Shown here: positions 350-64,000 of the stretch, in pieces | How positions within the stretch are numbered: position 1 is the stretch's first letter | Layout: each line of letters starts with the position of its first letter | Assembly: GCA_013203785.1 (NCBI GenBank) | Contig: JABMPJ010000110.1 | Location: 3,344 to 67,343 of the forward strand | DNA length: 64,000 nucleotides | Reading direction: 5' to 3' | Origin: Lentisphaerota bacterium | GTDB taxonomy: Bacteria; Verrucomicrobiota; Kiritimatiellia; UBA8416; JABMPJ01 | Notes under the pieces: generated by a model | Told to the model about the DNA's origin: nothing | Databases searched by the model: none | What the model saw: the letters and a program-made list of their open reading frames with translations, nothing else | Translations under genes and position numbers: made by a program

Positions 350-396
350 TCCTCTGTACCCCTTTGTAGGTTAATCTCAACACATCTCCCCCACCC

Positions 397-3231: not shown

Positions 3232-3255
3232 AGCTCCCCTGGTTGGGTGTGAAGC

Positions 3256-3317
3256 CCCTTATGTAGCGTTGGCCGTCCCCGGCCAATGGTTGGCCGAGAC
3301 GGCCAACGCTACAAGGG
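3256..3317. repeat. REPIN-like element: two inverted GTAG-type REP units
   Basis: GTAGCGTTGGCCG-TCCC-CGGCCAA (3263-3286) and its inverted partner GTAGCGTTGGCCG-TCT-CGGCCAA (3312-3290) separated by TGG; the outer 16 bp form a perfect inverted repeat. Confidence 0.75.
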
Positions 3318-3367
3318 ACATGGAGTCTCGTTCATTCGACAATCACCACTCACCATGGCACACGGCT

Positions 3368-6424: not shown

Positions 6425-6457
6425 GAATCCTCCGGTGCAAAATAATGACGCCGTATG

Positions 6458-7447
6458 CTAGGCCACTGGACCGGCCTTGGCGAGATAATACACCCCGTCC
6501 GCGCGGGTCTCAGCGTTAATCCGATCAGACGCCAAAAGCCCCTCTATGACTCTCTGCGCTGCATCGTCGCTGAGCCCAAACGACGCAGCTATGTCGGCCG
6601 CCGTGCAGGGCCGACGGGCCACCATATTCACGATGTCTCCGTCGGAGCCGGGCGACATCGCCGCGGTCGCACTCTCAAAGCGTGCGATGATCTCCGCACG
6701 GGGCTCAAACAGGTTGGCTAAGTCCGCCAGTGTGGCTTCGGTCACAGCCTGCGCGCCCCTGTGCGCTGGCGGTCTCACGACGGTGTTGAGCTGCACCCGG
6801 TTCGGCGCCATGCTCGCCGCCAGCGTGGCGATCCGCGCCACATCCGCAGGAGCATCATTGACGCCCGCCATAACGAAGACTTCCAACCATATCTGGCCAG
6901 CATACTCTGCGCGCAGGGTGCGCAGTCCCTCAACCATCTGGTCGAAGCGCAGAGCACAATGAGCCCGATTAACCCGCTCGAACGACGCCTGATCCCAGGC
7001 GCTGAGCGACACCTTCACAATGGATGCCCGCGCGGCATCGGCTCGTACCTCGGGAAGGTGCATGAGAGCGCTGTTGGTCAAGAGTGCTGTGGGGATGTTG
7101 CAGCGCGCCGCGATGCCCGCCAGGATAGTCCCACAGCCCGTGTGCAGGGTGGGTTCGCCCGATCCAGCCACCGTAATTATATCGGCGACACCACCGCGCG
7201 CCAACCAGGCATCCAGCTCTGCCAGCACTGCTTTCACCGGAACATAATCGCGGCGTGTAATGGTGTGGCAGGTCGTGGCACCGACCTCGCAAAAAGGGCA
7301 GTCAAACGGACAGGTTTTGACCGGCACCAAGTCGATACCCAGCGAGAGCCCCAGACGACGAGAGGGCACGGGTCCAAAAAGGTACCGGTACCCGCCCTCA
7401 GGTGTATGTGGTGAAGCGTCCACAACGGGACCGACGGGGCGATGCAC
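6458..7447 (-). CDS. Radical SAM Fe-S oxidoreductase (COG0731-like) with a C-terminal winged-helix-like extension
   Basis: FGPVPSRRLGLSLG followed by CPFDCPFC (CxxxCxxC) and the GSGEPTL motif. Confidence 0.85.
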   Translation of the reverse strand: MHRPVGPVVDASPHTPEGGYRYLFGPVPSRRLGLSLGIDLVPVKTCPFDCPFCEVGATTCHTITRRDYVPVKAVLAELDAWLARGGVADIITVAGSGEPTLHTGCGTILAGIAARCNIPTALLTNSALMHLPEVRADAARASIVKVSLSAWDQASFERVNRAHCALRFDQMVEGLRTLRAEYAGQIWLEVFVMAGVNDAPADVARIATLAASMAPNRVQLNTVVRPPAHRGAQAVTEATLADLANLFEPRAEIIARFESATAAMSPGSDGDIVNMVARRPCTAADIAASFGLSDDAAQRVIEGLLASDRINAETRADGVYYLAKAGPVA

Positions 7448-7621
7448 TCAGTCGCCAGCCGAAATGGCCTCGACCGGGCATTCATCGACGCACAGCGCGC
7501 AATCGACGCAGGTCTCAGGATCGATCATGTACTTCTCGTCGCCCTCAGAAATCGCTTCGGACGGACAGACCGGCTCGCAGCTGCCACACTTCGTGCATGA
7601 ATCAGAAATCACGTAGGCCAT
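7448..7621 (-). CDS. 2[4Fe-4S] ferredoxin, 57 aa (start corrected to ATG 7621)
   Basis: MAYVISDSCTKCGSCEPVCP...TCVDCALCVDECP: two CxxCxxCxxxCP motifs. Confidence 0.95.
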   Translation of the reverse strand: MAYVISDSCTKCGSCEPVCPSEAISEGDEKYMIDPETCVDCALCVDECPVEAISAGD

Positions 7622-49702: not shown

Positions 49703-50569
49703 TTACGTCTCGGCTTTTACCTCTACCTCGATCTCGGCAATTCGAGCCACGGCATCATCGAACTCCGAGGCACGCGTGACAAAGAAGTGGCAGGGCCGCC
49801 CCGCCAACGTCTCAACATCACTGCGAAGTCCAGTGTCGTAAGGATTCATTACGACCGCCAGCGCGTGCGATCCAAAAAAATCGAATACCAATGCACCACG
49901 TCGCACCACGAAATCGAGCGCAAGTAGTACGCCGACCTCTTTGGGGATATCAAAACTACCCAGCGCCACATAGGGTACCCCGCAGTCTTGCGAGACATAG
50001 GCGATCAGCCGGTCCACCCCCTTAAAACCACGCGCCTCCATAGCGTGCAGCACGGACACGGTGGCAGAGGCATCACTTCCTGACATTTCGGTCACATCCT
50101 GCACCGCCGAGGCATACTCTTCCTGCGTGATCTCGCCGGCCTGCAGTAGGTTCCATGCAAAGGCCAGCTCCTCCGACATGTTGGGGTTCATGTTTACGGT
50201 CCGCGCGACCGTCGATGGAAAAGGCGATACGGCCGTCCCCGCGCCATCATCGGGCGTCGAGGCCATCGCTTCAATTTTGGCCGCCAACGCGACGCCTTCC
50301 GCATCGCCAGCGCTCAACTCACGCAGGCGGTCCAGCAGCTCAAGCGCTTCCACGTGCGCCCCTTCGGCCACCAAAACGCGGCCCAAGCGCAAAACGTACT
50401 CGTAGGAGCGAGCGTGATCGCCGATCTGACCATAGGCGTGTGAAAGCGTTTCCAGTGACGCCCTATCCTCCGGCATGGCCTCAAGGATCTGCTCAAAAGC
50501 GGCGATGGCAGACCAGACCTCATCCTCGAGCTGCTTTCTACCTTTGTCGCTGCTCTCTTCGGTCGCCAT
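49703..50569 (-). CDS. TPR-like N-terminus plus stand-alone MshEN/T2SSE_N-like domain, no ATPase (start ATG 50569)
   Basis: AIAAFEQILEAMPED TPR; LLQAGEITQEEYASAVQD helix; then PYVALGSF..PKEV..LL..DFVVRRGALVF...AVVMNPYD. Confidence 0.65.
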   Translation of the reverse strand: MATEESSDKGRKQLEDEVWSAIAAFEQILEAMPEDRASLETLSHAYGQIGDHARSYEYVLRLGRVLVAEGAHVEALELLDRLRELSAGDAEGVALAAKIEAMASTPDDGAGTAVSPFPSTVARTVNMNPNMSEELAFAWNLLQAGEITQEEYASAVQDVTEMSGSDASATVSVLHAMEARGFKGVDRLIAYVSQDCGVPYVALGSFDIPKEVGVLLALDFVVRRGALVFDFFGSHALAVVMNPYDTGLRSDVETLAGRPCHFFVTRASEFDDAVARIAEIEVEVKAET

Positions 50570-50684
50570 CGTTGAGTGCCCCCGTAATCCTTCCATTCCC
50601 GTCCTGCCATGGCTATGTAACACCTTCAAGGGGTGAAATTCAAGGTTCAACCTTATTGCTCTATTCGTTGAACAGCCTTGAACG

Positions 50685-50700
50685 CGGCACGGCTTTTGCT
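50685..50700 (+). promoter_or_regulatory. sigma54 (-24/-12) promoter of pilBC
   Basis: CGGCACGGCTTTTGCT with exact GG-N10-GC spacing, 37 nt upstream of ATG 50738. Confidence 0.7.
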
Positions 50701-50737
50701 ATGTTGTGGTTGTTCCTCACCATGCAGAAGGTCGAAT

Positions 50738-52447
50738 ATGGGCAAAAACCCCTACAGCGGGAAGATCACGGATATTCTGATCAGAACCGCCGGTGTCACT
50801 CCCGACGCCCTCGCCGCAGCTGAAGAGCGCGCACTCAAAAAAGGCGAGCGACTCGAAAAACACCTCGTCGAACACGGCGTCGTGGGAGCCGAGGCCATGG
50901 TCCTGGCCCTCTCCGAGTATCTTGGTCTGGCACCTATGAACGTCAAGCACTTTACTCCGCATCAGCATCTGCTCGAATTGATACCGCGTGAGATGATGAA
51001 GAAGCAGATGATTGTTCCCGTTGCCCGCGTAGCCAAACAGCTCTCGGTGGCGGTCTCCGACCCGTTTGACCTGCCGGGACTGGATGAGCTGGCCTCCATC
51101 ACCGGTCTCAAGGTGGTCCCCATGGTGGCGGTCGAAGGCGATATTGCGGAACTGTTGGGTCGCCTCTTTGCCGAGACCTCACAGGGCCTCGACATGGAAG
51201 AACTGATGCGCGACGACAGCGACGTCCAGATTCTTGAGGGCGACAGCGAAGAGCAGAGCCTGGATGAAATGCTGGAGACCGCCGAGGGCGCCCCGGTCAT
51301 TCGCATGGTCAATATGATGCTGGTTGAAGCCTTGCGTACCGGTGCCAGTGACATACACATCGAGCCCATGGAGAAGCAAGTTCGGCTACGGTACCGCATT
51401 GACGGCAAGCTCGTCGAGCGACCGGGACCGCCTAAAAACTTACAGAATGCCGTGATATCACGCGTCAAGATCATGTCCGATCTCGACATCGCTGAGCGGC
51501 GCGTTCCCCAGGATGGGCGTTTCAACATCAAGGCCCTCGGCAAGGAAGTTGATTTGCGTATCAGTATTCTCCCCACCGTCCACGGTGAGAAGGTCGTCAT
51601 GCGTACGCTCGACAAGACCACGCTCTCCCCCAGTCTGTCTGCTCTCGGACTGGACCCCTATTCCGAACGCTGCATGACTCATGCCATCGCCCAGCCGCAC
51701 GGCATCATCCTTGTGACCGGACCAACCGGTAGTGGCAAGACCACCACGCTCTATTCGTGTCTGCAGGAGCTCAACCAACCCGACGTCAACATTATCACGT
51801 GCGAAGATCCTGTGGAATACCAGCTTCAGGGAGTCAACCAGGTCCAGATGCACTCGGAGGTTGGTCTGACCTTCTCGTCGGCTCTGCGTTCTATCTTGCG
51901 GCAGGACCCGGACATCGTACTCGTGGGCGAGATCCGCGATGGCGAGACGGCTGAGATCGCCATCAAAGCCGCCCTGACGGGCCACCTGGTTCTGAGCACC
52001 CTGCATACCAACAGTGCACCTGGCGCGGTGACGCGACTGATCGACATGGGTATTGAGCCCTTCATGCTGGGCTCCGCGCTTGTACTGGCCCAGGCCCAGC
52101 GGCTCTATCGCAAGCTCTGTCCCGCCTGCAAGAAGCCGGAACCCGTCGCGCCAGACGTACTAGAGCAGAACCACATCGACCCCAACTTCTTTGACGGCGT
52201 GACGCTCTACCGACCCGGGTCCTGTCCCCGTTGCACCAGCGGTTTCAAGGGGCGCGGTGCCATCATGGAGGTGTTGTTGCTTAATGATGACATCCGTAAC
52301 GCCATCATTCGAGGAGCCAACACAGCCGAGATTTTCAAGTTGGGGCTGGATGCGGGCATGGTCTCGCTCAAGCAGGCAGGCCTGACGCGGGTCAAGGATG
52401 GGCTAACGAGTCTAGCCGCCTCCATAGAAGTCACAGGCGGAGACTAG
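50738..52447 (+). CDS. pilB: Type IV pilus assembly ATPase PilB/GspE (start ATG 50738)
   Basis: ASDIHIEP, RRVPQDGR, GPTGSGKT, EDPVE, LRQDPD.ILVGEIRD, TGHLVLSTLH, and the Zn tetracysteine CPAC...CPRC. Confidence 0.95.
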   Translation: MGKNPYSGKITDILIRTAGVTPDALAAAEERALKKGERLEKHLVEHGVVGAEAMVLALSEYLGLAPMNVKHFTPHQHLLELIPREMMKKQMIVPVARVAKQLSVAVSDPFDLPGLDELASITGLKVVPMVAVEGDIAELLGRLFAETSQGLDMEELMRDDSDVQILEGDSEEQSLDEMLETAEGAPVIRMVNMMLVEALRTGASDIHIEPMEKQVRLRYRIDGKLVERPGPPKNLQNAVISRVKIMSDLDIAERRVPQDGRFNIKALGKEVDLRISILPTVHGEKVVMRTLDKTTLSPSLSALGLDPYSERCMTHAIAQPHGIILVTGPTGSGKTTTLYSCLQELNQPDVNIITCEDPVEYQLQGVNQVQMHSEVGLTFSSALRSILRQDPDIVLVGEIRDGETAEIAIKAALTGHLVLSTLHTNSAPGAVTRLIDMGIEPFMLGSALVLAQAQRLYRKLCPACKKPEPVAPDVLEQNHIDPNFFDGVTLYRPGSCPRCTSGFKGRGAIMEVLLLNDDIRNAIIRGANTAEIFKLGLDAGMVSLKQAGLTRVKDGLTSLAASIEVTGGD

Positions 52448-52460
52448 AGAGGATGCGCGC

Positions 52461-53648
52461 GTGAGTCCAGTTGTCAAACAGAACAATCGTACCGTTGCCA
52501 ACGAAGGCCGTGGTACGACCACCCCGAAGAAGCAGCAGCTGCGTGGCCAGCGCGCACCAACCCCCGGGAGCAAACCGCGTAAGAAGCGCGGCCATGTTCC
52601 TGGAGCCAAGAAAATTGCCAATGATTCGCTGCCCGGCTTCTCACGCCAGCTCAGCGCCATGCTGACGGCAGGCATGCCTATCGTGGCCGCCCTTGAGGCC
52701 CTCCAGGAACAGACCGACAACCCCAATTTCAAGACCGTCATCCAGCAGGTCCGAGGCGCCATCGAGAACGGATCGGCCTTCTCTGAATCCCTGCGCCTAT
52801 TCCCCACCATTTTTAATGACCTCTACGCCAACATGGTGCGTGGTGGCGAGAGCGGAGGCTCACTTGCCGAAGTCGTGGGTCGATTGGCCGGCTTCCTCGA
52901 GGAGAGCGCCAAATTGCGGCGCAAGGTCAAATCAGCCATGATGTACCCGGTCATCGTGCTCTGTATTGCCTTTACCATTGCTATCGGCATGATTGTATTC
53001 ATCGTGCCCGTTTTTGGTGCGATGTTCGCTGATTTTGGGGCGGATTTACCTGCCCCAACACAGGCCTTGCTGGATGTAAGTGACTTCCTCCGCAGCTATG
53101 GAGTCTACGTCGCGGTGGTGGCAATCACAGTCATCGTACTCTTCAAGAGATGGAAGAAGACTGAGAACGGGGCCTATGCATTTGACAATTTCGTCCTGCG
53201 CTTTCCCGTGTTTGGCGAGCTCAATAAAAAGGTGGCTGCCGCCCGCTTCTCTCGTACCTTTGGCCAGCTGATTCGAAGCGGTGTCCCTATCCTGAGCGCC
53301 CTTGAGATCTGCTCGGGTGCAACGGGCAATAAAGTGGCGGGGCGCATCGTGCTGGAAGCGCGCGAGTCTGTTGAGAAAGGCGAACCCCTCTCCAGCGCTA
53401 TGCTTACCCAGACCGTCTTTCCCATCATGATGGTGCGCATGCTACAGGCCGGTGAGAAGACCGGCAAGATCGATGAGATGATGGAGAGCATCGCCGACTT
53501 CTATGACGACGAAGTTGAAACCATGCTGAGCGGTCTGACCTCGTTGCTTGAACCGCTCCTGATGGTCTTCCTCGGCGTCATCATTGGTGGCATCGTGCTC
53601 TGTATGTTCCTCCCCATCTTCAAGATGGGTGAAGTCGTGGGCGGGTAA
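52461..53648 (+). CDS. pilC: Type IV pilus platform protein PilC/GspF
   Basis: FSRQLSAML.AG, GGESGGSL, AMMYP, AGEKTGKID and LEPLLMV. Confidence 0.95.
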   Translation: MSPVVKQNNRTVANEGRGTTTPKKQQLRGQRAPTPGSKPRKKRGHVPGAKKIANDSLPGFSRQLSAMLTAGMPIVAALEALQEQTDNPNFKTVIQQVRGAIENGSAFSESLRLFPTIFNDLYANMVRGGESGGSLAEVVGRLAGFLEESAKLRRKVKSAMMYPVIVLCIAFTIAIGMIVFIVPVFGAMFADFGADLPAPTQALLDVSDFLRSYGVYVAVVAITVIVLFKRWKKTENGAYAFDNFVLRFPVFGELNKKVAAARFSRTFGQLIRSGVPILSALEICSGATGNKVAGRIVLEARESVEKGEPLSSAMLTQTVFPIMMVRMLQAGEKTGKIDEMMESIADFYDDEVETMLSGLTSLLEPLLMVFLGVIIGGIVLCMFLPIFKMGEVVGG

Positions 53649-53767
53649 GCCTTTGGCACTATTCTAGAATTTGAGAAAAACACCTTTACCACGGTGTCAC
53701 TCGACGCCTATACTTTCCCCAAGTACGAACAGAGGCAAGAACCCGACCGACCAAGTGAGATGTTTTC

Positions 53768-55135
53768 ATGGCCAAGATCCTCCTAGTTGATGATGAACCC
53801 AGTATCCTGAGCGTCCTCAGCACGCTTCTTAAAGCCGAGAGTTATGATGTGCAACCCGTTCTGGGGGGAGAAAATGCCACCGAACTGATCGGCACGGGCG
53901 ACTTCGACCTGATGATTACGGATATCCGCATGAGCCCGGTCAATGGCATGGAACTCCTCAAGCAGGCCCATGATCAGTGTCCTGGCATGTCAGTGATTAT
54001 GCTTACAGCTTACGGGTCGGTCGAAACCGCCATCGAAGCCCTGAAATTGGGTGCTTTTGACTATGTGACCAAGCCCTTCAAGGTCGATGAGCTGCTTATC
54101 ACTGTGCAGCGGGCGATCGATTACAATAAGGCCATTTCTGAGAACGCAGACCTTAAGGCGCAGCTCAACACGCGCTACCACCTTAAGAATATTGTGGCTG
54201 AAAGCCGGGCCATGCAAAGCGTTTGCGACATGATTCAGCGCGTTGCTCCCACAGATGCCACTGTCCTTATCGGTGGCGAGAGCGGCACCGGCAAGGAGCT
54301 TGTCGCCAAGGCAATCCACGCCTACAGTCGGCGCAAAGATAAGAAATTTGTGGCCGTCAACTGCGCGGCCCTGCCCGAGCCCCTGCTCGAATCGGAGATG
54401 TTCGGCCACGTCAAAGGCGCATTTACGGGGGCGTCGAGTGACAAGGAAGGGCTTCTGGAGGCGGCCAGCGGCGGCACGATCATGCTTGATGAGATTTCCT
54501 CCATGCCACTCAGCATCCAGGGCAAGTTGCTACGCGTACTCCAAGAGAAGGAGGTCCGTCGCGTCGGAAGCAATAGCGACATCCCTATTGATGCCCGCGT
54601 CCTGGCCGCCACCAACACCTCGCTTGAGGAGATGATCAAGCAAGGTACCTTTCGCGAAGACCTCTACTATCGATTGAGCGTCATTCCGATCGAGATCCCC
54701 CCCTTGCGCGACCGCCCCGAAGACATCATGCCTCTCGTCTACCACGTCATTAAGCGCGAAACCATGGAAGGCCATACGCCGCCAGTACTAGATCCAGAGG
54801 TCGCCGCCATTCTGGAATCCTATACGTGGCCCGGTAATGTGCGCGAACTTGAAAACACAGTGACACACGCCCTGACCTTCTCCCAAAATGGGAAAGTCAC
54901 AAAGGCAGACCTCCCGGCCAAAGTCGCTGCGGCCCCAGTGCGAAGCAGCACCTCCACGGGCATTGCCGACGACGGCGACCGAGGCAAGTCTCTTAAAGCC
55001 TTTCTCCGGGCCAAGGAGAAGGAGTATCTCCAGCATGTTCTATCACTCTCCGGCGGTGATAAAGAAGAAGCGGCCAAAACGCTAAAAATTAGTCTCGCGA
55101 CTCTCTACCGCAAACTCCCCGAGAACGTAGAGTAG
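53768..55135 (+). CDS. pilR: sigma54-dependent response regulator (PilR/NtrC-like)
   Basis: REC (VDDE, ITD, DYVTKP), GESGTGKE, GAFTGA, WPGNVREL and a Fis-type HTH (ISLATLYRKL); lies between pilC and the pilin gene. Confidence 0.85.
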   Translation: MAKILLVDDEPSILSVLSTLLKAESYDVQPVLGGENATELIGTGDFDLMITDIRMSPVNGMELLKQAHDQCPGMSVIMLTAYGSVETAIEALKLGAFDYVTKPFKVDELLITVQRAIDYNKAISENADLKAQLNTRYHLKNIVAESRAMQSVCDMIQRVAPTDATVLIGGESGTGKELVAKAIHAYSRRKDKKFVAVNCAALPEPLLESEMFGHVKGAFTGASSDKEGLLEAASGGTIMLDEISSMPLSIQGKLLRVLQEKEVRRVGSNSDIPIDARVLAATNTSLEEMIKQGTFREDLYYRLSVIPIEIPPLRDRPEDIMPLVYHVIKRETMEGHTPPVLDPEVAAILESYTWPGNVRELENTVTHALTFSQNGKVTKADLPAKVAAAPVRSSTSTGIADDGDRGKSLKAFLRAKEKEYLQHVLSLSGGDKEEAAKTLKISLATLYRKLPENVE

Positions 55136-55208
55136 ATTCTCAATAGAGAGAATTCAAATTCCACAGGCACCCCGCCGGGTCCATCTCTTAATGCCTCATA
55201 CAGCGGAG

Positions 55209-55236
55209 CAATATTGGACAACGCTGTCCAATATTG
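55209..55236. promoter_or_regulatory. Perfect 12-bp inverted repeat, candidate upstream activator site for pilA
   Basis: CAATATTGGACA-ACGC-TGTCCAATATTG, about 180 nt upstream of the sigma54 site. Confidence 0.5.
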
Positions 55237-55412
55237 AACTGATAAGATGTCATACAAGAGAACATCTGGTCATATTTGCACAACTGAGAAGAATACACCA
55301 GATTTAGAGAGAGTCATAAACAAGACATAAAACTATCATATTGAGAAATAGAGAACCTCAAAGTCAGTCCTGAGAACCGATTTTCACAAAAAACAGAGAC
55401 GCCCATTACACT

Positions 55413-55428
55413 TGGCACGGCCACTGCT
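55413..55428 (+). promoter_or_regulatory. sigma54 (-24/-12) promoter of pilA
   Basis: TGGCACGGCCACTGCT with GG-N10-GC spacing in an AT-rich 360-nt spacer. Confidence 0.8.
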
Positions 55429-55495
55429 TTATTAATCCGCCGTAACGACTTAATAACGGGCAAGTTCGCAGCCCACTAACCGAGAGGAGAATGCG

Positions 55496-55852
55496 ATGAA
55501 CAAGAAGAACCTGGGTTTCACACTCGTAGAGATCATGATCGTGGTCGCGATCATCGGCCTGTTGGCCGCTATTGCAATTCCTTCCTTTGTGAAGGCTCGT
55601 AATACGTCACAGCAGAATGCCTGCGTCAACAACCTCCGTCAGATCGACGGCGGCAAAGAGCAGTGGGCGATGGCCGACAGGCAGAGCGATGGCGCCGCAG
55701 TCATCACCGCGTCCGTCAATGAGTACATTAAGGGCAACACGACTCCTGAGTGCCCCGGTGCCGGCACCTATATATACGGTAACATTGGTTCCAACCCGGC
55801 CTGCGATGGTGTGACGGTTACGTCGCATGTCTTCGCCGGTGGTGGTGCGTGA
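55496..55852 (+). CDS. pilA: Type IVa major pilin-like protein
   Basis: Class III signal MNKKNLG|FTLVEIMIVVAIIGLLAAIAIP; GAGGAG RBS; own promoter and terminator. Confidence 0.88.
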   Translation: MNKKNLGFTLVEIMIVVAIIGLLAAIAIPSFVKARNTSQQNACVNNLRQIDGGKEQWAMADRQSDGAAVITASVNEYIKGNTTPECPGAGTYIYGNIGSNPACDGVTVTSHVFAGGGA

Positions 55853-55866
55853 TCGACCGAGTCTGA

Positions 55867-57483
55867 TCATATACTGGGAGAAGCCCCGCTTCGGCGGGGC
55901 TTTTCTTTTGTCCGGCGCACTTCAGCCAGATTGCGCTGGGCCATGTCCAGTTCGGGGCGCAAGCGGACGGCCTCAGCGAAACAGCGTTCGGCCCCCACAG
56001 CGTCGCCCTGCTGAATACGAGCCACGCCGATATAGTTATAGGCAAGGGCGTAGTGACGGGCATCGCGGTAAAGCAGAGTCCCCTCTGCATTCGTCCCCCA
56101 CGCCGGAATGTCCCCGGCCTCTAACTCCTTGCAGTAGCTCAAACGTGCGACCACCGTCCTGCTGACGCTCTCGGCATCGGCCAAGCGTCCCTCTGTCAGT
56201 AGCGCGCTCGCCAGATTCAGACAGGCCCGGTGATTAGTGGGCCGCACCGCTACCACATTCTCCCACATCGACAAAGGCGATTGATAGACTCGGTTGCGCT
56301 GATGTGTTAGCCCCCCTTCCACCGCAACCAGAACCAGAACCACCACCACCGCTGCTCGCGTGCTTCGTTGCGACCGCATGGCGCCACGAAAAAGCCAATA
56401 GGAACCCAGTACGAACGCCCCGATCACAGCAGCCAGGGGGAGATACATACGATGCTCGAAGGCTGCATCTGGCACAGAGATCACACTCGAAGTGGGCGCC
56501 AGAATCGCGAAGAACCAGAGACCTATGAATGCGTGGGGGCGCCCACGCAGACATAAGAGTAGCGTCCACGCACCCAGAGCCACCAGGAGCGTGCCCGGCC
56601 CGATCACCGTTTGCCACGACGTCACAAGAGGCCAGCCGTAGTCAAAACAGAGATGGACCGGCAGCAGGCTTAGTTTGAGATAGTGCGGAATGACCTCCAT
56701 CTGGGTCAGGAGATACTGTAGCGGTGAGACCGCCAAGGTTACCCCCTGCCCCTCCACCGCCACCGCATCAAACATCTGTCGCGCCAGCAGGGCCGAGCAG
56801 ACCAGCGTCAGCCACAGCCCCATATGTACCCCCCAGCGCCGCCGCATCACCGCACTCGGAGAGGGCCCCACCACCCACAGATCGTAGAGCAGCACAACCA
56901 AGGGCGCCATCAACATGACCTCTTTGGTACCCGTGCCGAGTAGGCAGCACAGCACCGACAGGCCAAACCACACTCGTCCTCGACGTGCTCCATCCGCCTC
57001 TACTCCTCGAACGAAGGTATACATTGTGGCAAGAAAAGAGAGCCCCATCAGCGACTCGTAGCGTTGACAGATATAAGTGACACTCTCAGTCTGGAGTGGG
57101 TGTACCGACCACAACACTGCCACCGAGCCAGCCAGGAAGGGTGCATGTCGAGCCCACACCGCGCCTGACCGGGGCAAAAGCAGCGTTCGTCGCAGCCAAC
57201 CGAATAGCAGCAGCGCAGCTCCTATATGGATCAGCAGGTTGACCGCGTGGTAGTCAGCCACACGCAGTTCACCCACGGCATAGTTCAGCTTAAAGCTGAG
57301 GTTGACCAGCCATCGGCCCACCAGCACCACCGGCCACACGGTCCGCATGTCGGGATTCTGCACGATGATGAGGCCATCATCGAATAGAAAGGGGTTCCCA
57401 AATGCGTCAACATACGCCAGCACCGTTGCCGTCACGATGACCAGCGGCACCCAGAGACGCCATCTTATTCCATCTATATTCAT
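55867..57483 (-). CDS. TMTC-like GT-C membrane glycosyltransferase with C-terminal TPRs
   Basis: PFLFDD acidic motif after TM1, HAVNLLIH, HPLQTESVTYICQRYESL, KEVM, EHRMYLPLA and C-terminal TPRs. Confidence 0.75.
   Translation of the reverse strand: MNIDGIRWRLWVPLVIVTATVLAYVDAFGNPFLFDDGLIIVQNPDMRTVWPVVLVGRWLVNLSFKLNYAVGELRVADYHAVNLLIHIGAALLLFGWLRRTLLLPRSGAVWARHAPFLAGSVAVLWSVHPLQTESVTYICQRYESLMGLSFLATMYTFVRGVEADGARRGRVWFGLSVLCCLLGTGTKEVMLMAPLVVLLYDLWVVGPSPSAVMRRRWGVHMGLWLTLVCSALLARQMFDAVAVEGQGVTLAVSPLQYLLTQMEVIPHYLKLSLLPVHLCFDYGWPLVTSWQTVIGPGTLLVALGAWTLLLCLRGRPHAFIGLWFFAILAPTSSVISVPDAAFEHRMYLPLAAVIGAFVLGSYWLFRGAMRSQRSTRAAVVVVLVLVAVEGGLTHQRNRVYQSPLSMWENVVAVRPTNHRACLNLASALLTEGRLADAESVSRTVVARLSYCKELEAGDIPAWGTNAEGTLLYRDARHYALAYNYIGVARIQQGDAVGAERCFAEAVRLRPELDMAQRNLAEVRRTKEKPRRSGASPSI
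55881..55909 (+). terminator. Strong intrinsic terminator after pilA
   Basis: AAGCCCCGC-TTCG-GCGGGGCTT followed by a U-rich tract. Confidence 0.9.
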
Positions 57484-57520: not shown

Positions 57521-59554
57521 ATGAATCGCACGCGGCCGGCAAGTGTCCCGTGCGCAATTCAGGCTTGCGGGAGCTACCAGCACGCGGCACAATGCGTTAT
57601 GAGCAACACAATTGAGAACCATCGTACTACGCTCTCACTTGCCATTCTGATGTCCATCGCACTCTCAGCACTTCCGTTGCAGGGCGAGGGATATCGAGAC
57701 TGGCTCAAGAAGGATGCCAGCGCGGCCAGCCGCTTCGATACCCCGAAGGCGGACGAACCAGAAACAGAGCCGCCTGTCGCCGCACCCGCCGATCGCCCGT
57801 CGGCAGAACCCCCTCGCCCTGTGGAGCCGCCAGAACAGCCGGCACACCCACAGCCACTATCGGACACACACGCAACCGCACCTGCGCAGGCCATGGCTTT
57901 GGCCCGCGATGGCAGCTCGCCACTACATCCCTTCGTCAAACGCGCGGTCTTGGGCCTGCACGAAGGCAAGGATGCCTCTGAGAGCAACTACGTCTGCGTC
58001 ATCAACAGTGGTATTAACGCCCTGATCCTGCGACTGCACCTGATCCGTAATGCCAAGGTCAGTATAGACGTGCAAACGTTCATCTACGACAACGATGAGG
58101 TCGGGCGCCTGCTGACCTACGAATTCATTCAGGCAGCCAAGCGAGGCGTGAAGGTCCGAATCATCGCCGACCACCTCGCTTCGGCACGTGACCGTGAGGC
58201 TATAGCCTTTCTCGCCACGGTACACCCTAATCTGCGAATCAAGCACTACCGACCCGTCGCGGGTCGCATGGAACCCTCTCAACTCCAGGAGACCATCGAC
58301 GGAATTATCCCGAACCGCACAAACCAACGCATGCATAACAAGCTCTTTTTGGTGGATGACATGATCGGCATTACGGGGGGGAGAAATATAGAGAATTGCT
58401 ACTACGATTTCAGCACCCAGACCAACTTCAAGGACCGCGATGTGATGCTGATCGGACCCGTCGCACTCGATATGAAAGTATCCTTTAACGCATTCTGGAA
58501 CTTCAAACACTCAGTCAGCAGCCGTGACCTCCCTGATGTGCGCTCGCTGATCAAGTCAGGCAAATACAGTCGGCCCGAGACCCTCGCTGACTTTCATATC
58601 GACAGTCGTTTCGACACCGTCAACCGCTTGGCCGATAGTCGTGAGTATATCCAAGAGGCCTTTGCCCACCGGCTCGTCAAACCACGCCGCGTCGTACTGC
58701 TGGCCGATAAACCCGGCAAGAACCGAAAGTTCTTCTTTTTCTCCGGTGGAGGACGCATTACCGAGCAACTGGCAGAGACCCTCCAACTGGCCGAGGAGAG
58801 TCTCGTTATCCAGTCACCTTATCTCGTTCTCGACCGCAAGGCACGTAAGCTCCTGCGTTCACTCAAGAAAAAGCACGACGGACTACGGATTATACTGTCG
58901 TCCAACAGTTTTTCTGCAACAGACAGCGTCATCGCCTATTCCGCCAATTACCGTATGCGCTCCTCTTATATCGAGGATGTTGGTGTTGAAGTATACGAAT
59001 ACAAGCCCCACCCAGAAGACCTTCTGCACGTCCTACCCTCCTTTCCCGAGCTGGAGGCGCGCGCACAGGAGGAGGGCAAGGAGAAGCGACCACACCTCTG
59101 CATCCATGCCAAATCACTCGTAATCGATGATCGTCACACCTTTATTGGCTCCTACAATCTTGATCCACGTTCAGCCAACCTAAACACCGAATTGGGACTC
59201 CTGATTGACGACCCCGTGGTCGCGACCTGGGTCAAGAACGACATTCTCCGCGACTGTCTGCCGCGCAATAGCTGGGTGATTGCCAAGCGTCGTATGCCCC
59301 TCAACCTGGACGATGTCAACCGGCTCGTTGAGGGCACGCTGCGGCACACCCCTCTCGATATCTGGCCTATTCGTAATACCACGAGCTTCGATCTCATACC
59401 CAATCGACCTGCTGTACCGCCTTTCCACCCCGACTTCTACGACTGTTATCGTGAGACCGGTGACTTTCCGGGTGCCTCCAAGGACCTTAGCGGCAAGGAG
59501 ATCATCACGCGCATCCTCAAAGTCATCAGCAGCCCCGCCCAGGGACTGTTCTGA
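57521..59554 (+). CDS. Phospholipase D family protein (ClsC/YmdC-like) with a signal/anchor and Pro-rich linker; true start may be 57599
   Basis: Two HKD motifs (MHNKLFLVD, IHAKSLVID), GGRNI, GSYNLDPRSANLNTELG and SIDVQTFI. Confidence 0.9.
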   Translation: MNRTRPASVPCAIQACGSYQHAAQCVMSNTIENHRTTLSLAILMSIALSALPLQGEGYRDWLKKDASAASRFDTPKADEPETEPPVAAPADRPSAEPPRPVEPPEQPAHPQPLSDTHATAPAQAMALARDGSSPLHPFVKRAVLGLHEGKDASESNYVCVINSGINALILRLHLIRNAKVSIDVQTFIYDNDEVGRLLTYEFIQAAKRGVKVRIIADHLASARDREAIAFLATVHPNLRIKHYRPVAGRMEPSQLQETIDGIIPNRTNQRMHNKLFLVDDMIGITGGRNIENCYYDFSTQTNFKDRDVMLIGPVALDMKVSFNAFWNFKHSVSSRDLPDVRSLIKSGKYSRPETLADFHIDSRFDTVNRLADSREYIQEAFAHRLVKPRRVVLLADKPGKNRKFFFFSGGGRITEQLAETLQLAEESLVIQSPYLVLDRKARKLLRSLKKKHDGLRIILSSNSFSATDSVIAYSANYRMRSSYIEDVGVEVYEYKPHPEDLLHVLPSFPELEARAQEEGKEKRPHLCIHAKSLVIDDRHTFIGSYNLDPRSANLNTELGLLIDDPVVATWVKNDILRDCLPRNSWVIAKRRMPLNLDDVNRLVEGTLRHTPLDIWPIRNTTSFDLIPNRPAVPPFHPDFYDCYRETGDFPGASKDLSGKEIITRILKVISSPAQGLF

Positions 59555-59579: not shown

Positions 59580-60788
59580 ATGTACACAACGGGGCGATCA
59601 TTTCGCCCCATGGAGAAGCTACCCCCAACCGACGAGGCTAATCGGCGGCGCAACCGCCTGATCGTAGTTGCCGTGATCTGCTTCCTGGCCCTGCTGCCCT
59701 CCCTCTTGGCTTGGCTGGTCAATCTTGACATAGCACTTCAGGTTGTGGCTCCCGCATGGCAGAGCTTGGTCGGCGAAAACCCAGCGGGTTTACTTGGAGC
59801 GCTCGCCTCGCTGGCAGGGGACTACAGCACCATTTCCACTCTGGTGCCCGTGCTACTCTTCGCCTTCCCTATGATTCAGGCATTCCGTATTTTACGTCGC
59901 CCTTGCGACGACCGCGCCTCGATCCATGCCATGCGGGCCCTGCCCTACCCCGCTCACTTCCCCTTCTTCCTGGTTATGCTTGGCCTCACCGGTACGCTCT
60001 ACGGTCTCTGGATCGGCCTGAGCGTCAGTGGCGTTTCCGGCGTGGCCAAAGGGGTCCCCTCTGCGGAAGATCTGCCCGTTGTTCTGGAGCGTCTGCTGGA
60101 CGGCACCGCCACGGCACTGCTTAGCTCGTTGCTCGGCCTAATCGGTGCTTTCTTGGCCGCCAAGCCTTTTCCTTTTCTCTTTGAGCAGGCCGCCTGCCTC
60201 GACCCGATTGAGGAGGAACGCTCGCTGGCAGAAACAATCGACCACCTTACACGCGATCTTAAGGCCCTTAGCGCTGCGAGCCGTGAGTTCAGTACCACCC
60301 TACATCCCGCGGCCGTCACAGGTGTCCTCGAGGCGATCGCATCCATGGAGACCGCCGTCACCCGCCAGACCGAAGCCACAGAGGGATCGCGCGGCGCTAT
60401 CGAGGCAGTCGAAGCAGCCGTTAGCAACCAAAGCGAGACGAGCCAACAGACACTGCAGACCATGCAACGCATCGAAGTTGCGGAGCGTGAGAGTGCGGTG
60501 TGCCTCCAAAAGATCGACGGCATCGCAACGGTCGTCAGTAACACGGCGCGGTGCATTGACCAGATGGGCGTACTATGCGAAAAATTGATAGACACGGAGC
60601 TTGGCATGGCCGACACGCTCAACCGCCTCTTAGGTGAAATGCAAGCTGAACGCCGGGAATCAGCGGTACATCTCACCGCCCTGCGCGGCACCATTGAGAG
60701 TGAAGCCACCGACGCGCGCAGTGAGCGTACGCGACTTCGCAAAGCGTTCGCCGCCTACGTGGGAGGCTTGGCCCGTGGCGACGACTGA
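59580..60788 (+). CDS. MotA/TolQ/ExbB/ZorA-like ion-channel subunit with a long helical cytoplasmic tail; true start may be 59610
   Basis: TM hairpin FPFFLVMLGLTGTLYGLWIGL ... LLDGTATALLSSLLGLIGA matches the stator-family signature and is followed by about 190 aa of heptad-like helix. Confidence 0.7.
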   Translation: MYTTGRSFRPMEKLPPTDEANRRRNRLIVVAVICFLALLPSLLAWLVNLDIALQVVAPAWQSLVGENPAGLLGALASLAGDYSTISTLVPVLLFAFPMIQAFRILRRPCDDRASIHAMRALPYPAHFPFFLVMLGLTGTLYGLWIGLSVSGVSGVAKGVPSAEDLPVVLERLLDGTATALLSSLLGLIGAFLAAKPFPFLFEQAACLDPIEEERSLAETIDHLTRDLKALSAASREFSTTLHPAAVTGVLEAIASMETAVTRQTEATEGSRGAIEAVEAAVSNQSETSQQTLQTMQRIEVAERESAVCLQKIDGIATVVSNTARCIDQMGVLCEKLIDTELGMADTLNRLLGEMQAERRESAVHLTALRGTIESEATDARSERTRLRKAFAAYVGGLARGDD

Positions 60789-61515
60789 CTATAATGCTGC
60801 ACACGCCGCCCGCCAGATCGACGCACTGGTCAACCGTTCCCAGACGCGCCTCTACACGCACAGTCCCAACGATGTTTTGGTGCAGATTGCCCTGCCCCTT
60901 ATCCTCATCCTCGCCATTACCACTCGCCTGACCATGGTGGCGTCCAACATGAACGCTCAAAAGGACATGGTACCGGCCGTGATGGAACTATGGAAACAGG
61001 AGCTCATCATGCGCATCGACCGCGCGCTGGATGCATGGGAGGCCGAGGCGAACCTGGCCATGTTTCCCGACTTCACTCGAATCCAGTGGGCCGACGCCTG
61101 GCCCAGCGACGAGCGCTACCAGCAGCTCTGCCGCAAGGCCCAGGAGCTGAACGATCCTCATGCCCTACAGGAATATATCCTCGCAACGGCCTTGGCCAGC
61201 CAGGAAGTGGAGAGTGCGGCCGCCTTGAACGCCATGGCCCCCGGCCAGGATCTCGCCTTACACCCCGGCAGCCCGGAGGCGGCCTATGCCGAGGCATATA
61301 TTGCCCAGCGTCGCGCCCAGTGGCAGGAGAGCATTGAGCGACTTCAATGGGAAACCGTCGGTCATGTGGCCATCCATCTCCCCGTGGGTCCCGACGCGGG
61401 CGCCGCCGATGCCAAGGCCCAGCTGCAGCGCATAGCGGTCGGATTGCAGCAACAGGGTTACCCCCTGATGGCGGCGGTGCGGGGCGAATACGGTACCGAG
61501 GAAGAAACACCATGA
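60775..61515 (+). CDS. MotB/ExbD/ZorB-like single-TM subunit (start GTG 60775)
   Basis: GGGAGG RBS; overlaps the upstream stop by 14 nt; single TM SPN-D33-VLVQIALPLILILAI with Asp at the TM start; helical C-terminal part with no recognisable OmpA motif. Confidence 0.55.
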   Translation: MATTDYNAAHAARQIDALVNRSQTRLYTHSPNDVLVQIALPLILILAITTRLTMVASNMNAQKDMVPAVMELWKQELIMRIDRALDAWEAEANLAMFPDFTRIQWADAWPSDERYQQLCRKAQELNDPHALQEYILATALASQEVESAAALNAMAPGQDLALHPGSPEAAYAEAYIAQRRAQWQESIERLQWETVGHVAIHLPVGPDAGAADAKAQLQRIAVGLQQQGYPLMAAVRGEYGTEEETP

Positions 61516-63800
61516 GAACGGTTTGGCTGCTCCTTCTGCTTATGGCACCACTCGTCCGAGCCGACGAGAGCGCCCTCTCCGCACGTGATCGCGCCAAGCG
61601 GCAGCTCGCCGTGCGCGCCGCCGCCCAGAAAATTGTCGATACCCTCCAGAGTGGCGTCGACGTCAGCGAAAGCGAAGCGCGCCGCCTTAGCGCGGTCCTC
61701 GGAGCAACGATGCGGGCCGACGTCCATGCACATGCCGCGCCGGAAGCCAGCCTCACCCTCTGCCGCACCCTCCTGGATGACGAGCGCCGTCAGGCCATCA
61801 ACCAATGGGTCGACGACGCCATCAGCCGCGCGCGCGAGCAGACCGCTCTACCGCTCGAGAGGGACGACATTCTGCGACACGTGGGCAGCGACTGGGCAGA
61901 GCGGGTGGCCGAAGATGCCAAGCGTTTTGCCGACAAGCACCTCACCACGCTCTTCGGCCTGGCCCGCCAGCAGAGCGTGGCCCTGCAGCGCGACGAGCTA
62001 AAGGATCGCATCACAATGCCATCCGAAGCCGACCTCAACGCCCGGCTCACCGTCTTGGACGAGAGTTTGGGCCATCACCCCCCTACCCCTAGTGATCTGG
62101 ATGGCCTCACGGCGTGGCTGGCTTCCTTAGCAAGCCCGGCCTCGCAGCCACTCTTTGAGGAGGTGGCGCACAGCACGCGTGAAGCGGCCGACCAGATAAC
62201 CCAGCGCGTTAAGTTGCAGTACCAGCAACAGCTGACCGCCCTTGGCAAAGCGGCCACAGCACTCCCGCCAACGGCGATTGAGGCCGACAGTATTCGCGCG
62301 GCCCTGATGCAAGCGACCCACACGGCGATCCAAGCCTTCCGGGTTGAGGAACGGCGCAACCGTCCCGCGTCACGCACCACGATCTATGGGCCCCTGACTC
62401 TCATCGCGCGTGAAGCCACCCGCCAGGCCGGTGCCCTCCAGGAAGAACGACTGGTCGCCGCCATTCAGGAGCAGGGCGACCTGCCGATTGAGGCCGATGC
62501 CATTGAGAGCGTCCTGCGCTCTGACCTGAAAGCCCACCGCGATCCCAAGCAGAGTCGCAGCCTCCTCATCACCCGCTACGCCACCGAGCTACGCCCTCTC
62601 CTGACCACCCGCCTGGCCACCTTAGCCGCCCGCCCGGACGACTCGGCCTTCCGAAGCCGACTGGACGCCCTGATCACCGGGAACAAGCGCATCTCCCTCG
62701 CCGTCGACCAACAGGTGGCTAAGACCCTCACGCCTCTACTCGCATCGGCCCGTCGTAAGGTCGCCCAAAGCCAGCTAGCGCTCCTGTTCAGACAGGACCC
62801 CACAACCATTGAGGCTCTCACCCCCGACGCCGTCCAAGCGGTTTGGACCACCAGCCGCTGCGAGGTAGTCCAACACTATAGTGAGGCATGGGAGTCGCTT
62901 GTGGCGGCGGGTCTACTCCCTGACCCCCAGGCGTCGGACATTCTGATCGAGGAGGCCCGCAGCGAAACCATCGCCACGGCCAACCGCCTCATTCCGGTGG
63001 CCTGTCGCTCCATGCGCGAGCAGGCCAACCACCTGGCGACGCTTGAACAGGAGTGGACCGCCTCACTCCGCAAGGATGTCGCGTCGGGGCGCTCCCTCGA
63101 GAAGATTACGACCGACTGGACCCATGAACTGGATCGCCGCTGGCGCACCCATGCCGAGATGCAAAAGCTGCCCTACCCCGATCTCTTTGCCCTAACCCTA
63201 GAGCTACTCGACAAGACGGTTCGCAAGCTTTTCGAGACACGCCAAGCCGAAATGACCGAGGAAACCGCTGCAGTCGAGACGCCTGCCGAGGCGGCACCCG
63301 AAGAGGAGGAGCTCATTGAAGAGCCCCCGCCTCCGCCTGAGGAGACGCCCGAGGAGTCGACCAACATGGCCATTGAGGAACTCCTTGAAACGCTCGACTT
63401 CGTGCTCTACTTCCGCGATGACCGCAACGGCCGCAGCGAAGCACTCCTGCTCAACGGCGAGGGCAGCCCGACCCGCCTGCTGTTCGATCCTGGCGATGTC
63501 CAGGCTGCCGTCGAAGCCGTTTACGCAGCCGTTATACCGGCCATCGAGCGCGCCACGCGGGGCAAAGCCAAGGCCGCGCCGGAACGCAAAGGCCTCCTGG
63601 CGTTCTTCCAGAAGCCCCGCTCGATCGAGATGAAGGTGGCCGTCCTGGTAGGCAGTGAGGATGTGCGTCACATGATGAGCATTCTGCTACGCAACCGGGT
63701 CGAACTTTTCGTGGCCGACTGGAATGCGAACCCCTCCAACACCCCCCTCGAACTGGAGTGGGAGGACAATCTGGAAGTGGCACCCGGAAGCGGCGGGTGA
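61512..63800 (+). CDS. Large secreted alpha-helical protein of unknown function, 762 aa (start ATG 61512)
   Basis: ATGA overlap with the previous stop; signal peptide MRTVWLLLLLMAPLVRA|D; about 580 aa helical body, Glu/Pro linker and small C-terminal alpha/beta domain. Confidence 0.75.
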   Translation: MRTVWLLLLLMAPLVRADESALSARDRAKRQLAVRAAAQKIVDTLQSGVDVSESEARRLSAVLGATMRADVHAHAAPEASLTLCRTLLDDERRQAINQWVDDAISRAREQTALPLERDDILRHVGSDWAERVAEDAKRFADKHLTTLFGLARQQSVALQRDELKDRITMPSEADLNARLTVLDESLGHHPPTPSDLDGLTAWLASLASPASQPLFEEVAHSTREAADQITQRVKLQYQQQLTALGKAATALPPTAIEADSIRAALMQATHTAIQAFRVEERRNRPASRTTIYGPLTLIAREATRQAGALQEERLVAAIQEQGDLPIEADAIESVLRSDLKAHRDPKQSRSLLITRYATELRPLLTTRLATLAARPDDSAFRSRLDALITGNKRISLAVDQQVAKTLTPLLASARRKVAQSQLALLFRQDPTTIEALTPDAVQAVWTTSRCEVVQHYSEAWESLVAAGLLPDPQASDILIEEARSETIATANRLIPVACRSMREQANHLATLEQEWTASLRKDVASGRSLEKITTDWTHELDRRWRTHAEMQKLPYPDLFALTLELLDKTVRKLFETRQAEMTEETAAVETPAEAAPEEEELIEEPPPPPEETPEESTNMAIEELLETLDFVLYFRDDRNGRSEALLLNGEGSPTRLLFDPGDVQAAVEAVYAAVIPAIERATRGKAKAAPERKGLLAFFQKPRSIEMKVAVLVGSEDVRHMMSILLRNRVELFVADWNANPSNTPLELEWEDNLEVAPGSGG

Positions 63801-63811
63801 GAGGAGGAAGC

Positions 63812-64000
63812 ATGCCGTTACCTGTCCCCACAACTGTGGATGCGATTGATTGGGCGCAGTGGTCTCCGACCGAGGATGCCACGCTACTTTTCGTGATCAA
63901 CGACAGCTCCATTCTGCTGATTCACAAACTGCGCGGGCTGGGTAAGGGTAAGATCAACGGACCGGGCGGCCGCACCGAGCCGGGCGAGACGGCCCACCAC
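63812..64000 (+). CDS. NUDIX hydrolase (MutT/MTH1-like 8-oxo-dGTPase), partial at the right edge
   Basis: GAGGAGG RBS; manual translation ...ILLIHKLRGLGKGKINGPGGRTEPGET, the start of the Nudix box. Confidence 0.85.
   Translation, partial: MPLPVPTTVDAIDWAQWSPTEDATLLFVINDSSILLIHKLRGLGKGKINGPGGRTEPGETAHH

Follow-up and report, generated by a model that had tools for sequence, protein, structure and literature searches.

A conserved three-gene set encoding a divergent MotA/ExbB/ZorA-like membrane subunit, a candidate axle subunit and a predicted exported partner

We analysed a window of 64,000 nucleotides from a Lentisphaerota bacterium (contig JABMPJ010000110.1 of assembly GCA_013203785.1, forward strand, positions 3,344 to 67,343), near whose end three genes, here called A, B and C, follow one another. 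The unit of inheritance is exactly A, B and C. The sequence of A places it in the MotA/ExbB/ZorA superfamily as a divergent member that is nearest to ZorA-like proteins and lies under every curated threshold. B and C are orphans with no matching sequence family or solved fold. We lean towards the reading that A-B-C is a self-contained envelope-spanning module, built on an ion-driven rotary motor of the MotAB/ZorAB type and equipped with a periplasmic partner. A sequence-only reading of the same DNA had proposed a new motor at this place; the three-gene set that it observed is real and is confirmed here, and its interpretation as a whole is partly supported. The genes are as follows.

59610..60788, plus strand: gene A, predicted membrane subunit of the MotA/ExbB/ZorA superfamily; 392 amino acids, or 402 with the ATG at 59580; from its open reading frame (ORF) and public gene calls.
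60775..61515, plus strand: gene B, single-pass membrane protein and candidate axle (MotB/ZorB-like) subunit; 246 amino acids from a GTG start, and likewise 246 in the public gene call.
61512..63800, plus strand: gene C, predicted exported partner protein; 762 amino acids from an ATG start; directly 3′ of B in 42 of 44 species loci.

In the ORF list of the window, the three genes lie head to tail, all on the plus strand. For A, the ATG at 59610 is favoured over that at 59580 by public gene calls and by the N-termini of homologues; our residue numbers for A refer to this 392-residue form, and 10 is added to obtain those of the 402-residue form used earlier. The GTG start of B at 60775 has GGGAGG 8 nucleotides upstream and lies within A, so that the two genes overlap by 14 nucleotides up to the A stop codon TGA (60786-60788). 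The ATG of C at 61512 overlaps the TGA of B as ATGA, and GAGGAAG lies upstream of it. The three overlapping and apparently coupled genes described from the sequence alone, with overlaps of 14 nucleotides and ATGA, are therefore borne out by the ORFs and the junction sequence.

Relatives of A are rare, amounting to 103 (as 90% clusters) among 5.8 billion proteins, and the few with a named source come from Kiritimatiellia/Kiritimatiellota, Verrucomicrobia and Opitutales. Given this rarity, the family is unlikely to be a housekeeping replacement for Tol or Ton. A survey of one genome per species, covering 185,579 species, gave 44 A loci. All belong to the Planctomycetes-Verrucomicrobia-Chlamydiae (PVC) group, namely Kiritimatiellia, Opitutales/Puniceicoccaceae, Victivallales/Lentisphaeraceae and unclassified PVC bins. 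The carriers include the cultured Kiritimatiellota isolates B12222 and B1221 (L004/L047, L032). Searches with tblastn and hidden Markov models (HMMs) showed that the order A-B-C is kept in 42 of these 44 loci, wherever the contig is long enough. Genes A and B overlap at 30 of 43 junctions, mostly by 4 or 8 nucleotides, and B and C at 19 of 37, mostly by 4 nucleotides; nearly all remaining junctions of either kind span at most 20 nucleotides.

The arrangement also occurs among remoter relatives of A from metagenomic clades (E-values of 1e-27 to 1e-8), where the next genes match the B HMM and then, where the contig reaches, the C HMM. Such triads are present at four loci (L053, L055, L061 and L062), and a fifth locus, L052, has A and B on a contig that ends 72 nucleotides into the third gene. 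Because B and C matches follow even these relatives, the triad must be old and extend well beyond the core family. The view of C as a dedicated partner thus gains from the 42 species loci and from the remoter clades alike. Poor joint conservation of the three genes had been named beforehand as a result that would speak against the proposal; it was tested by synteny and did not occur.

The sequence of A matches ZorA models, weakly yet specifically. The PADLOC models ZorA2 (E = 1e-7) and ZorA1 (E = 1.7e-4) both match on a hairpin of two membrane segments. When the full-length profile of A was compared with the PDB, chemoreceptor signalling bundles ranked best. The coiled-coil tail of A had swamped this search, and the profile was therefore trimmed to the membrane part. 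The top four PDB matches of the trimmed profile are ZorA chains (8QYH, 8QYY, 8QYK and 8QYD, E = 0.011-0.07). In the alignment of the membrane parts, a proline, a glycine, T129, a tyrosine and T166 of A stand opposite P136, G146, Thr147, Y149 and Ser184 of ZorA. Thr147 and Ser184 are the ion filter of ZorA that contacts Asp26 of ZorB, and the tip of the ZorA tail is also reported to resemble chemoreceptor signalling bundles (PMC11946911).

A search of 1.84 billion representative sequences with the membrane-part profile returned 138 proteins at E ≤ 0.001. A scan covered 79 of the remoter full-length matches: Pfam MotA_ExbB is present in 47 of them (best E = 7.8e-11), and ZorA2 is matched by 18 (best E = 6e-11). 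Aligned by hhalign with single E. coli sequences, the A profile matched ExbB (P = 5.7e-4 over 140 columns) and TolQ (P = 9.7e-4), and found nothing in MotA. Since composition can inflate the E-values obtained with membrane and coiled-coil proteins, the case for A rests on the specific enrichment of MotA_ExbB and ZorA among its remoter matches, on the residue-level alignment and on the conserved operon partner. The PADLOC and NCBIfam matches, the ranking of PDB profiles and the 47 transitive MotA_ExbB matches agree with the earlier placement of A in the stator superfamily with a ZorA-like tail. A lack of any MotA/ExbB-family profile match had also been set out in advance as a counter-result, and was tested for and not encountered.

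Protein A has four hydrophobic segments by hydropathy (residues 17-35, 77-95, 117-135 and 162-180), a pattern found in 36 of 41 family members. Its main parts are these.

59658..59894, plus strand: membrane segments 1 and 2 of A (residues 17-35 and 77-95) and the acidic loop that joins the two, from hydropathy and loop charges; W35, N38, D71, S73 and T77 are invariant.
59943..60167, plus strand: putative pore hairpin of A (residues 112-186), PYPxHFPFFLVMLGLTGTLYGL ... GTATALLSSLxGLIGAF, invariant in 41 sequences and aligned to ZorA 133-192.
60195..60785, plus strand: predicted cytoplasmic coiled-coil tail of A (residues 196-392), from the alignment and heptad periodicity.

The N-terminus and the loop between segments 2 and 3 are basic, and the loops between segments 1 and 2 and between 3 and 4 are acidic. 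This distribution of charge places both ends of A, and hence the tail, in the cytoplasm. The motifs LGLTGTLYGL and GTATALLSSLLGLIGAF are invariant in the alignment of 41 homologues, as are the hydroxyl residues of the putative pore helices, T129 (codon 59994-59996), T166 (codon 60105-60107), T168, S172 and S173. The hairpin that had been picked out in A from its GLTGT...TALLSSLLG pattern is present, and segments 3 and 4, which form it, are almost invariant.

The tail, previously put at about 190 helical residues, is 197 residues long in the window and heptad-periodic. Its length ranges from 152 to 240 residues in the family (median 189), and the family-wide spectrum of its hydrophobicity has a peak at a period of 3.53 residues, with 4.5 times the mean power. 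The base and the tip (ERxxLRKAF) of the tail are conserved, and the middle varies in both sequence and length. In the remoter triad L053, the tail of the A homologue contains about six tandem LSTQNDL heptads.

Another conserved residue of A is D71 (59820-59822), which lies in the motif D-x-S-T-[IV]-[ST] at the periplasmic start of segment 2 and is invariant in the core family. None of the 79 aligned remoter relatives departs from the aspartate that is matched to it by this motif (D65 of alignment A6). D71 may belong to the ion entry site or to a contact with a partner.

Protein B combines the traits expected of the second subunit of such a motor: a single helix with its N-terminus inside, a conserved aspartate near the cytoplasmic end of that helix, and a gene that adjoins A.

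60871..60939, plus strand: membrane helix of B, motif SPNDVLVQIALPLILILAI, starting at the codon of Asp33 (60871-60873); N32 and D33 are invariant.
60970..61494, plus strand: predicted periplasmic domain of B (residues 66-240), Trp-rich and, in the AlphaFold2 model, all-helical, with a GYPLL motif near its end.

Around the aspartate, B reads SPND33VLVQIALPLILILAI. One hydrophobic segment preceded by a K/R-rich N-terminus occurs in 37 of 37 homologues, in keeping with the single membrane segment starting at Asp33 that had been seen before. N32 and D33 are invariant in these 37 locus-derived homologues and in 42 database homologues.

The AlphaFold2 model of B has a predicted local distance difference test (pLDDT) score above 90 over most of residues 70-240 and contains helices only. 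This confident all-helical model, together with the absence of a Pfam match, upholds the claim that B has no OmpA-like domain. A Foldseek comparison of the model with the PDB gave no match at E ≤ 0.001, and TM-scores were at most 0.26 among the 50 matches listed. Nor did B match Pfam (where the 37 homologues were also scanned singly), PADLOC, NCBIfam or, as a profile, the sequences of the PDB. Alignment by hhalign with TolR, ExbD and MotB of E. coli detected nothing (P > 0.2 for TolR and ExbD).

Protein C is predicted to be exported, and its signal peptide appears to be a feature of the family.

61512..61562, plus strand: predicted signal peptide of C (residues 1-17, cut after VRA), with a short and variable n-h-c pattern.
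61581..63278, plus strand: helical body of C (residues 24-589), which opens with the conserved basic helix (P)KxRAKxxLAxRAAA; from AlphaFold2 and the alignment.
63279..63368, plus strand: acidic, Pro/Glu-rich disordered linker of C (residues 590-619), pLDDT below 50.
63372..63767, plus strand: end domain of C (residues 621-752), alpha/beta with the strand order b-b-b-a-b-a-b; AlphaFold2 pLDDT about 70-80.

The N-terminus of C is MRTVWLLLLLMAPLVRA|DE, where the bar marks the predicted cut. A heuristic found this type of signal peptide in 33 of the 37 homologues; of the four without it, three come from miscalled start codons and one is borderline. The hydrophobic stretch consists of 11-27 uncharged residues (mostly 14-23), follows K/R residues and is not conserved in sequence, which is the pattern of a cleaved signal peptide.

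The AlphaFold2 model of C, made from only 13 sequences, has a mean pLDDT of 78. Its body comprises about 565 helical residues, with a pLDDT that is about 90 over residues 24-430 and lower over 430-589. The linker is of low complexity and variable length in all homologues. The end domain carries the motif SxxVRHxMSILLR and the conserved residues D629, S715, R719, H720, S723, R727 and W750. The description of C as a secreted helical protein of 762 residues is thus right as to the signal peptide and residues 24-589, and does not extend to the last approximately 140 residues, which are alpha/beta and had not been recognised. Identity between the C proteins of different lineages is only 21-29%.

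No match to C was found in Pfam (28 homologues were also scanned singly), PADLOC, NCBIfam or, by profile, the sequences of the PDB, and hhalign detected nothing between C and E. coli TolA. The model likewise has no Foldseek match at E ≤ 0.001 in the PDB or BFVD. Two folds in the set are thus modelled confidently and yet unmatched, the periplasmic domain of B and residues 24-430 of C. The best fold matches of the end domain of C are RNase H-like and weak (probability ≤ 0.41, E > 0.7). Because the match is weak and there is no conserved acidic catalytic set, we do not read this domain as a nuclease.

In motors of this superfamily, five A subunits stand around two B helices, and the (de)protonation of a carboxylate in B beside hydroxyls in A turns A relative to B; the motor can do work only if the envelope holds B or a partner in place (PMC11946911). 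By analogy, the inner membrane would contain a ring of five A subunits with two B helices at its centre. Ions would pass between T129 in segment 3 of A, T166, T168, S172 and S173 in segment 4, and Asp33 of B, and their flow would turn the ring of A and its coiled-coil tail of about 190 residues relative to B. C may dock on the periplasmic face of this motor, such that its body, acidic linker and end domain would connect the motor to outer layers of the envelope. C could then serve as an anchor, a sensor or both, the role that OmpA-like domains, TolA or TonB have elsewhere. The tail of A could be the output, as in Zorya, or an element of assembly or regulation. The most probable role of the module is to couple the state of the outer envelope to a membrane motor and its cytoplasmic tail. 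An accessory envelope function, as opposed to motility, canonical Tol/Ton or canonical Zorya, is the most economical interpretation.

Several observations weigh against a motor module of this kind. All direct matches of A to known families lie far under the curated cut-offs. The NCBIfam model antiphage_ZorA_4 matches A with E = 7.6e-4 and 18.5 bits, where its cut-off is 500; ZorA_2 also stays below threshold, reaching 9.4 with a cut-off of 100. A Pfam scan of A gave no match, and MotA_ExbB (PF01618) reached at best E = 1.1 among 18 trimmed family members. B is a candidate B subunit by its position, size, topology and aspartate, with no support from homology. The conservation of Asp33, on which the earlier proposal relied, stands for the core family and fails in the remoter clades: its column holds Glu in L052, Asn in L061 and Ser in L062, with Asp retained in L053. 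In the B proteins of L061 and L062, an Asp occurs 5 residues upstream of the Asn and 3 residues upstream of the Ser, respectively. The tail of A is never missing, as would be expected if it had a function in the cytoplasm, yet no cytoplasmic partner is encoded with it. Finally, two species (L033 and L039) have A and B with no C nearby.

The large ORFs near A and B at these two loci were considered as candidates for C and rejected, being Tex in L033 and an OmpA-family membrane protein in L039. The latter is encoded by the gene after B (2772-5105 of that locus). It has 777 amino acids; its N-terminal region is GYF-like and its C-terminal domain is an OmpA-like, wall-binding one, and it also has a long coiled coil and a single membrane helix. 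In this single case, the protein might substitute for C.

Some further loci have features of their own. The remote B homologue of L052 (1202-2014) has Glu as its putative pore carboxylate (SPIELLAH). The L053 triad (155-5695 and 6339-7559) lies beside a diversity-generating retroelement with a reverse transcriptase, bAvd and a 1199-residue kinase/NACHT/FGE-sulfatase protein. The still remoter triad of L061 (382-7562) has low G+C and encodes an A of 448, a B of 305 and a C-like protein of 546 amino acids; upstream of it lie genes for a TIR_2-domain protein and for a TPR protein. An apparent fusion of B and C in a Victivallales bin (L016, 8775-8881) is an artefact of a run of N in the scaffold. 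A search for RNA evidence of the locus turned up only freshwater DNA metagenome runs.

The flanks of A-B-C are unrelated between lineages. Clustering of all flanking ORFs gave no recurrent neighbour beyond lineage-local synteny, and several apparent clusters are antisense or alternative-frame ORFs inside A, B or C. We examined the 112 nearest flanking ORFs from 40 loci. Most of those with a match are transporters, metabolic enzymes or enzymes of envelope biosynthesis, such as MFS proteins, a Na/H antiporter, TonB-dependent receptors, sugar isomerase-like barrels, LptF/G and polysaccharide synthesis. Strong PADLOC matches occur in 5 of the 112. The flanks do not resemble defence islands. No relatives of A were found on viral contigs or plasmids, and tblastn detected no canonical TolQ, ExbB or MotA genes in the window or the loci. 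That the set comes with no zorC/D/E/F/G, TonB/TolA or flagellar genes, as had been noted earlier, agrees with the results from Pfam, PADLOC, NCBIfam, hhalign, tblastn and the gene neighbourhoods.

Upstream of gene A, the window contains a set of pilus-like genes.

49703-55852: type IV pilus/type II secretion-like set, including an MshEN-domain protein on the minus strand.
50678-52447: PilB/GspE-like ATPase.
52461-53648: PilC/GspF-like platform protein.
53768-55135: sigma-54 response regulator.
55496-55852: N-methyl prepilin.

The sequence-only reading had considered a link between A-B-C and this locus. We drop it, since PilB, PilC, pilin and regulator neighbours occur only in the window's own contigs. 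The related loci offer one unrelated PilB-like gene, about 5 kb away on the other strand of a single locus.

Between the pilin gene and gene A lie two more genes. The first (55867-57483, minus strand) encodes a multi-pass membrane protein of 538 amino acids with C-terminal TPR repeats, which are all that Pfam recognises in it. The second (57521-59554), ending 25 nucleotides upstream of A, encodes a phospholipase D-family protein of 677 amino acids with two domains, which is cardiolipin synthase-like and has generic matches to DISARM DrmC. On the other side, a NUDIX hydrolase gene (63812-64000) starts 11 nucleotides downstream of C. We rejected the phospholipase D and NUDIX genes as members of the system; they are kept only in the closest relatives (L008-L010, whose A proteins are 59-61% identical) and are absent elsewhere.

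A Tol/Ton-like energiser is a possible though doubtful alternative to the module with an anchoring or sensing C. Here the motor would act on C, or by way of C, in the periplasm and so serve the outer membrane or the cell wall, for instance in membrane tethering, uptake or export, and the tail would be needed only for assembly or regulation. The gene order A-B-C mirrors tolQ-tolR-tolA and exbB-exbD-tonB (channel, axle, long periplasmic partner), and all dedicated accessory mass is periplasmic. In outline C resembles TolA and TonB, which likewise combine a region that is helical or extended with a stretch rich in Pro/Glu and, at the C-terminus, a small alpha/beta domain. Because of this vague likeness, the earlier statement that TonB and TolA are missing is true for homology and not necessarily for analogy. 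The membrane part of A aligns with ExbB and TolQ, in weak profile matches, about as well as with ZorA.

However, TolA and TonB engage the motor by a conserved N-terminal membrane anchor, whereas C has a variable, cleavable signal peptide and would be soluble after cleavage. Neither B nor C has homology to TolR/ExbD or TolA; B does not have the ExbD/TolR fold, and homologues of B and C have no Pfam match to ExbD, TonB_C or TolA. The cassette contains no TolB/Pal or TonB-dependent partner. With only 103 clusters among the 5.8 billion proteins, the A-B-C family is rare and accessory. The universally retained tail of A, which does not occur in ExbB or TolQ, is left unexplained.

A Zorya-like anti-phage system is unlikely. 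It would have B and C sense envelope damage, upon which the motor would start and the tail would recruit effectors encoded elsewhere, or the channel would drain the membrane potential. ZorA models are the nearest known ones to A, and the combination of a coiled-coil tail and a conserved tip otherwise characterises Zorya; the resemblance to chemoreceptor bundles is also like that of the ZorA tip. The compact cassette, its patchy distribution and its changing flanks would suit a defence system, and one remote triad, that of L061, adjoins a TIR-domain gene, which is a single case, as is the retroelement beside the L053 triad. On the other hand, the cassette has no nuclease or other effector and no match to ZorC/D/E/F/G, and B does not have the peptidoglycan-binding domain that Zorya needs. 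The flanks carry transporters and metabolic genes, with few strong defence-model matches, and neither viral contigs nor plasmids contain the family. Defence systems that spread by transfer would not be expected to stay within PVC phyla, as the core family does. The anti-phage role raised by the sequence-only reading thus receives no support from neighbourhoods, viral contigs or plasmids.

It is very improbable that A-B-C is no motor at all, with A and B a passive channel or scaffold, or A having merely a shared helical hairpin, and C just a co-transcribed periplasmic protein: the direct family matches of A are weak, B and C are orphans and the Asp column is unconserved in remoter clades, but no member of the core family departs from the pore hydroxyls or the Asp, MotA_ExbB and ZorA are specifically enriched among the remoter matches of A, and the synteny of three genes with overlapping stop and start codons is kept across a divergence as deep as that of C.

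A motor module with C as its envelope partner would be informative in several respects. The family keeps the pore chemistry, and its peripheral parts are all replaced by proteins with no detectable relatives or solved folds. It raises the questions of how such a motor is anchored and read out when it has no wall-binding domain, and what purpose a ZorA-type tail has with no effector attached. The unit is compact at three genes and could be transferred to a model host. On this reading, three families so far listed as "hypothetical proteins" in Kiritimatiellia, Opitutales and Victivallales/Lentisphaerae also acquire a plausible role.

The closest parallel among known systems is Zorya. ZorA is the best-scoring known model for A, and the pore hairpin aligns with it at the Thr and Ser/Thr ion-filter positions. 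Both proteins have a long C-terminal cytoplasmic coiled coil after the last membrane helix. As in ZorAB (PDB 8QYD/8QYH, types I-III), B has a single helix whose Asp lies close to the cytoplasmic end, and the A and B genes are adjacent and coupled. The differences are, however, considerable. A has four segments with a cytoplasmic loop of about 20 residues between segment 2 and the hairpin, whereas ZorA has three helices and, between its first and second membrane helices, a membrane-proximal domain of about 80 residues (H1-H3, a beta-hairpin and a Ca2+ site). The tail of A has about 190 residues, compared with about 500 in E. coli ZorA (residues 223-729). The periplasmic domain of B is all-helical, whereas that of ZorB is an OmpA-like peptidoglycan-binding dimer. 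The third gene encodes a protein predicted to be exported, in place of a cytoplasmic DNA-binding protein or nuclease, and no further gene is conserved. Moreover, A scores far under the cut-offs of the ZorA families.

MotAB and PomAB share with A-B-C the four-segment topology of A, with both termini inside, and a one-helix B subunit with an Asp. By contrast, segments 2 and 3 of A are not separated by a large cytoplasmic domain that generates torque, B does not have a plug, linker or OmpA-like domain, and there are no flagellar genes nearby. GldLM and PorLM are also motors of the 5:2 type whose non-channel components reach far into the periplasm. In their case, however, the periplasmic shaft is the B-like subunit itself, GldL has two helices, the phyla differ, and we detected no sequence relation.

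The 'generic ion transporter' relatives of MotAB (PMC12505986; mBio 2025) are similar in being non-flagellar pairs of A and B genes in operons, with extra A domains of unknown function. They differ in being built on an Exb/Tol scaffold with compact peptidoglycan-binding B domains. The phylogenies of that article omit Zorya-like proteins, and its consulted parts describe no PVC triad with an exported third protein. The literature that we searched contains no description of such an A-B-C triad.

Known contexts of 5:2 motors are a handful: flagella, gliding/type IX secretion, Tol, Ton and Zorya. Each newly found context showed another use of the membrane potential outside the cytoplasm. A-B-C fits none of MotAB, ExbBD, TolQR and ZorAB, as had been argued from the sequence, since several of their defining features were tested for and are missing from it. 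By its sequence features, it represents a new family within the known kind of 5:2 motor that is distinct from Zorya, Tol, Ton, Mot and Gld. Tentatively, and with considerable doubt, one can go further and regard it as a fourth functional class of 5:2 motor beside motility, Tol/Ton and Zorya, in which a soluble exported protein, in place of a domain that is anchored in the membrane or binds the wall, would link the rotary unit to the outer envelope and the tail would report on or regulate that link. If so, the periplasmic domain of B and protein C would represent new folds that couple a motor to the envelope in a novel manner, and the PVC bacteria would own a private trans-envelope machine.

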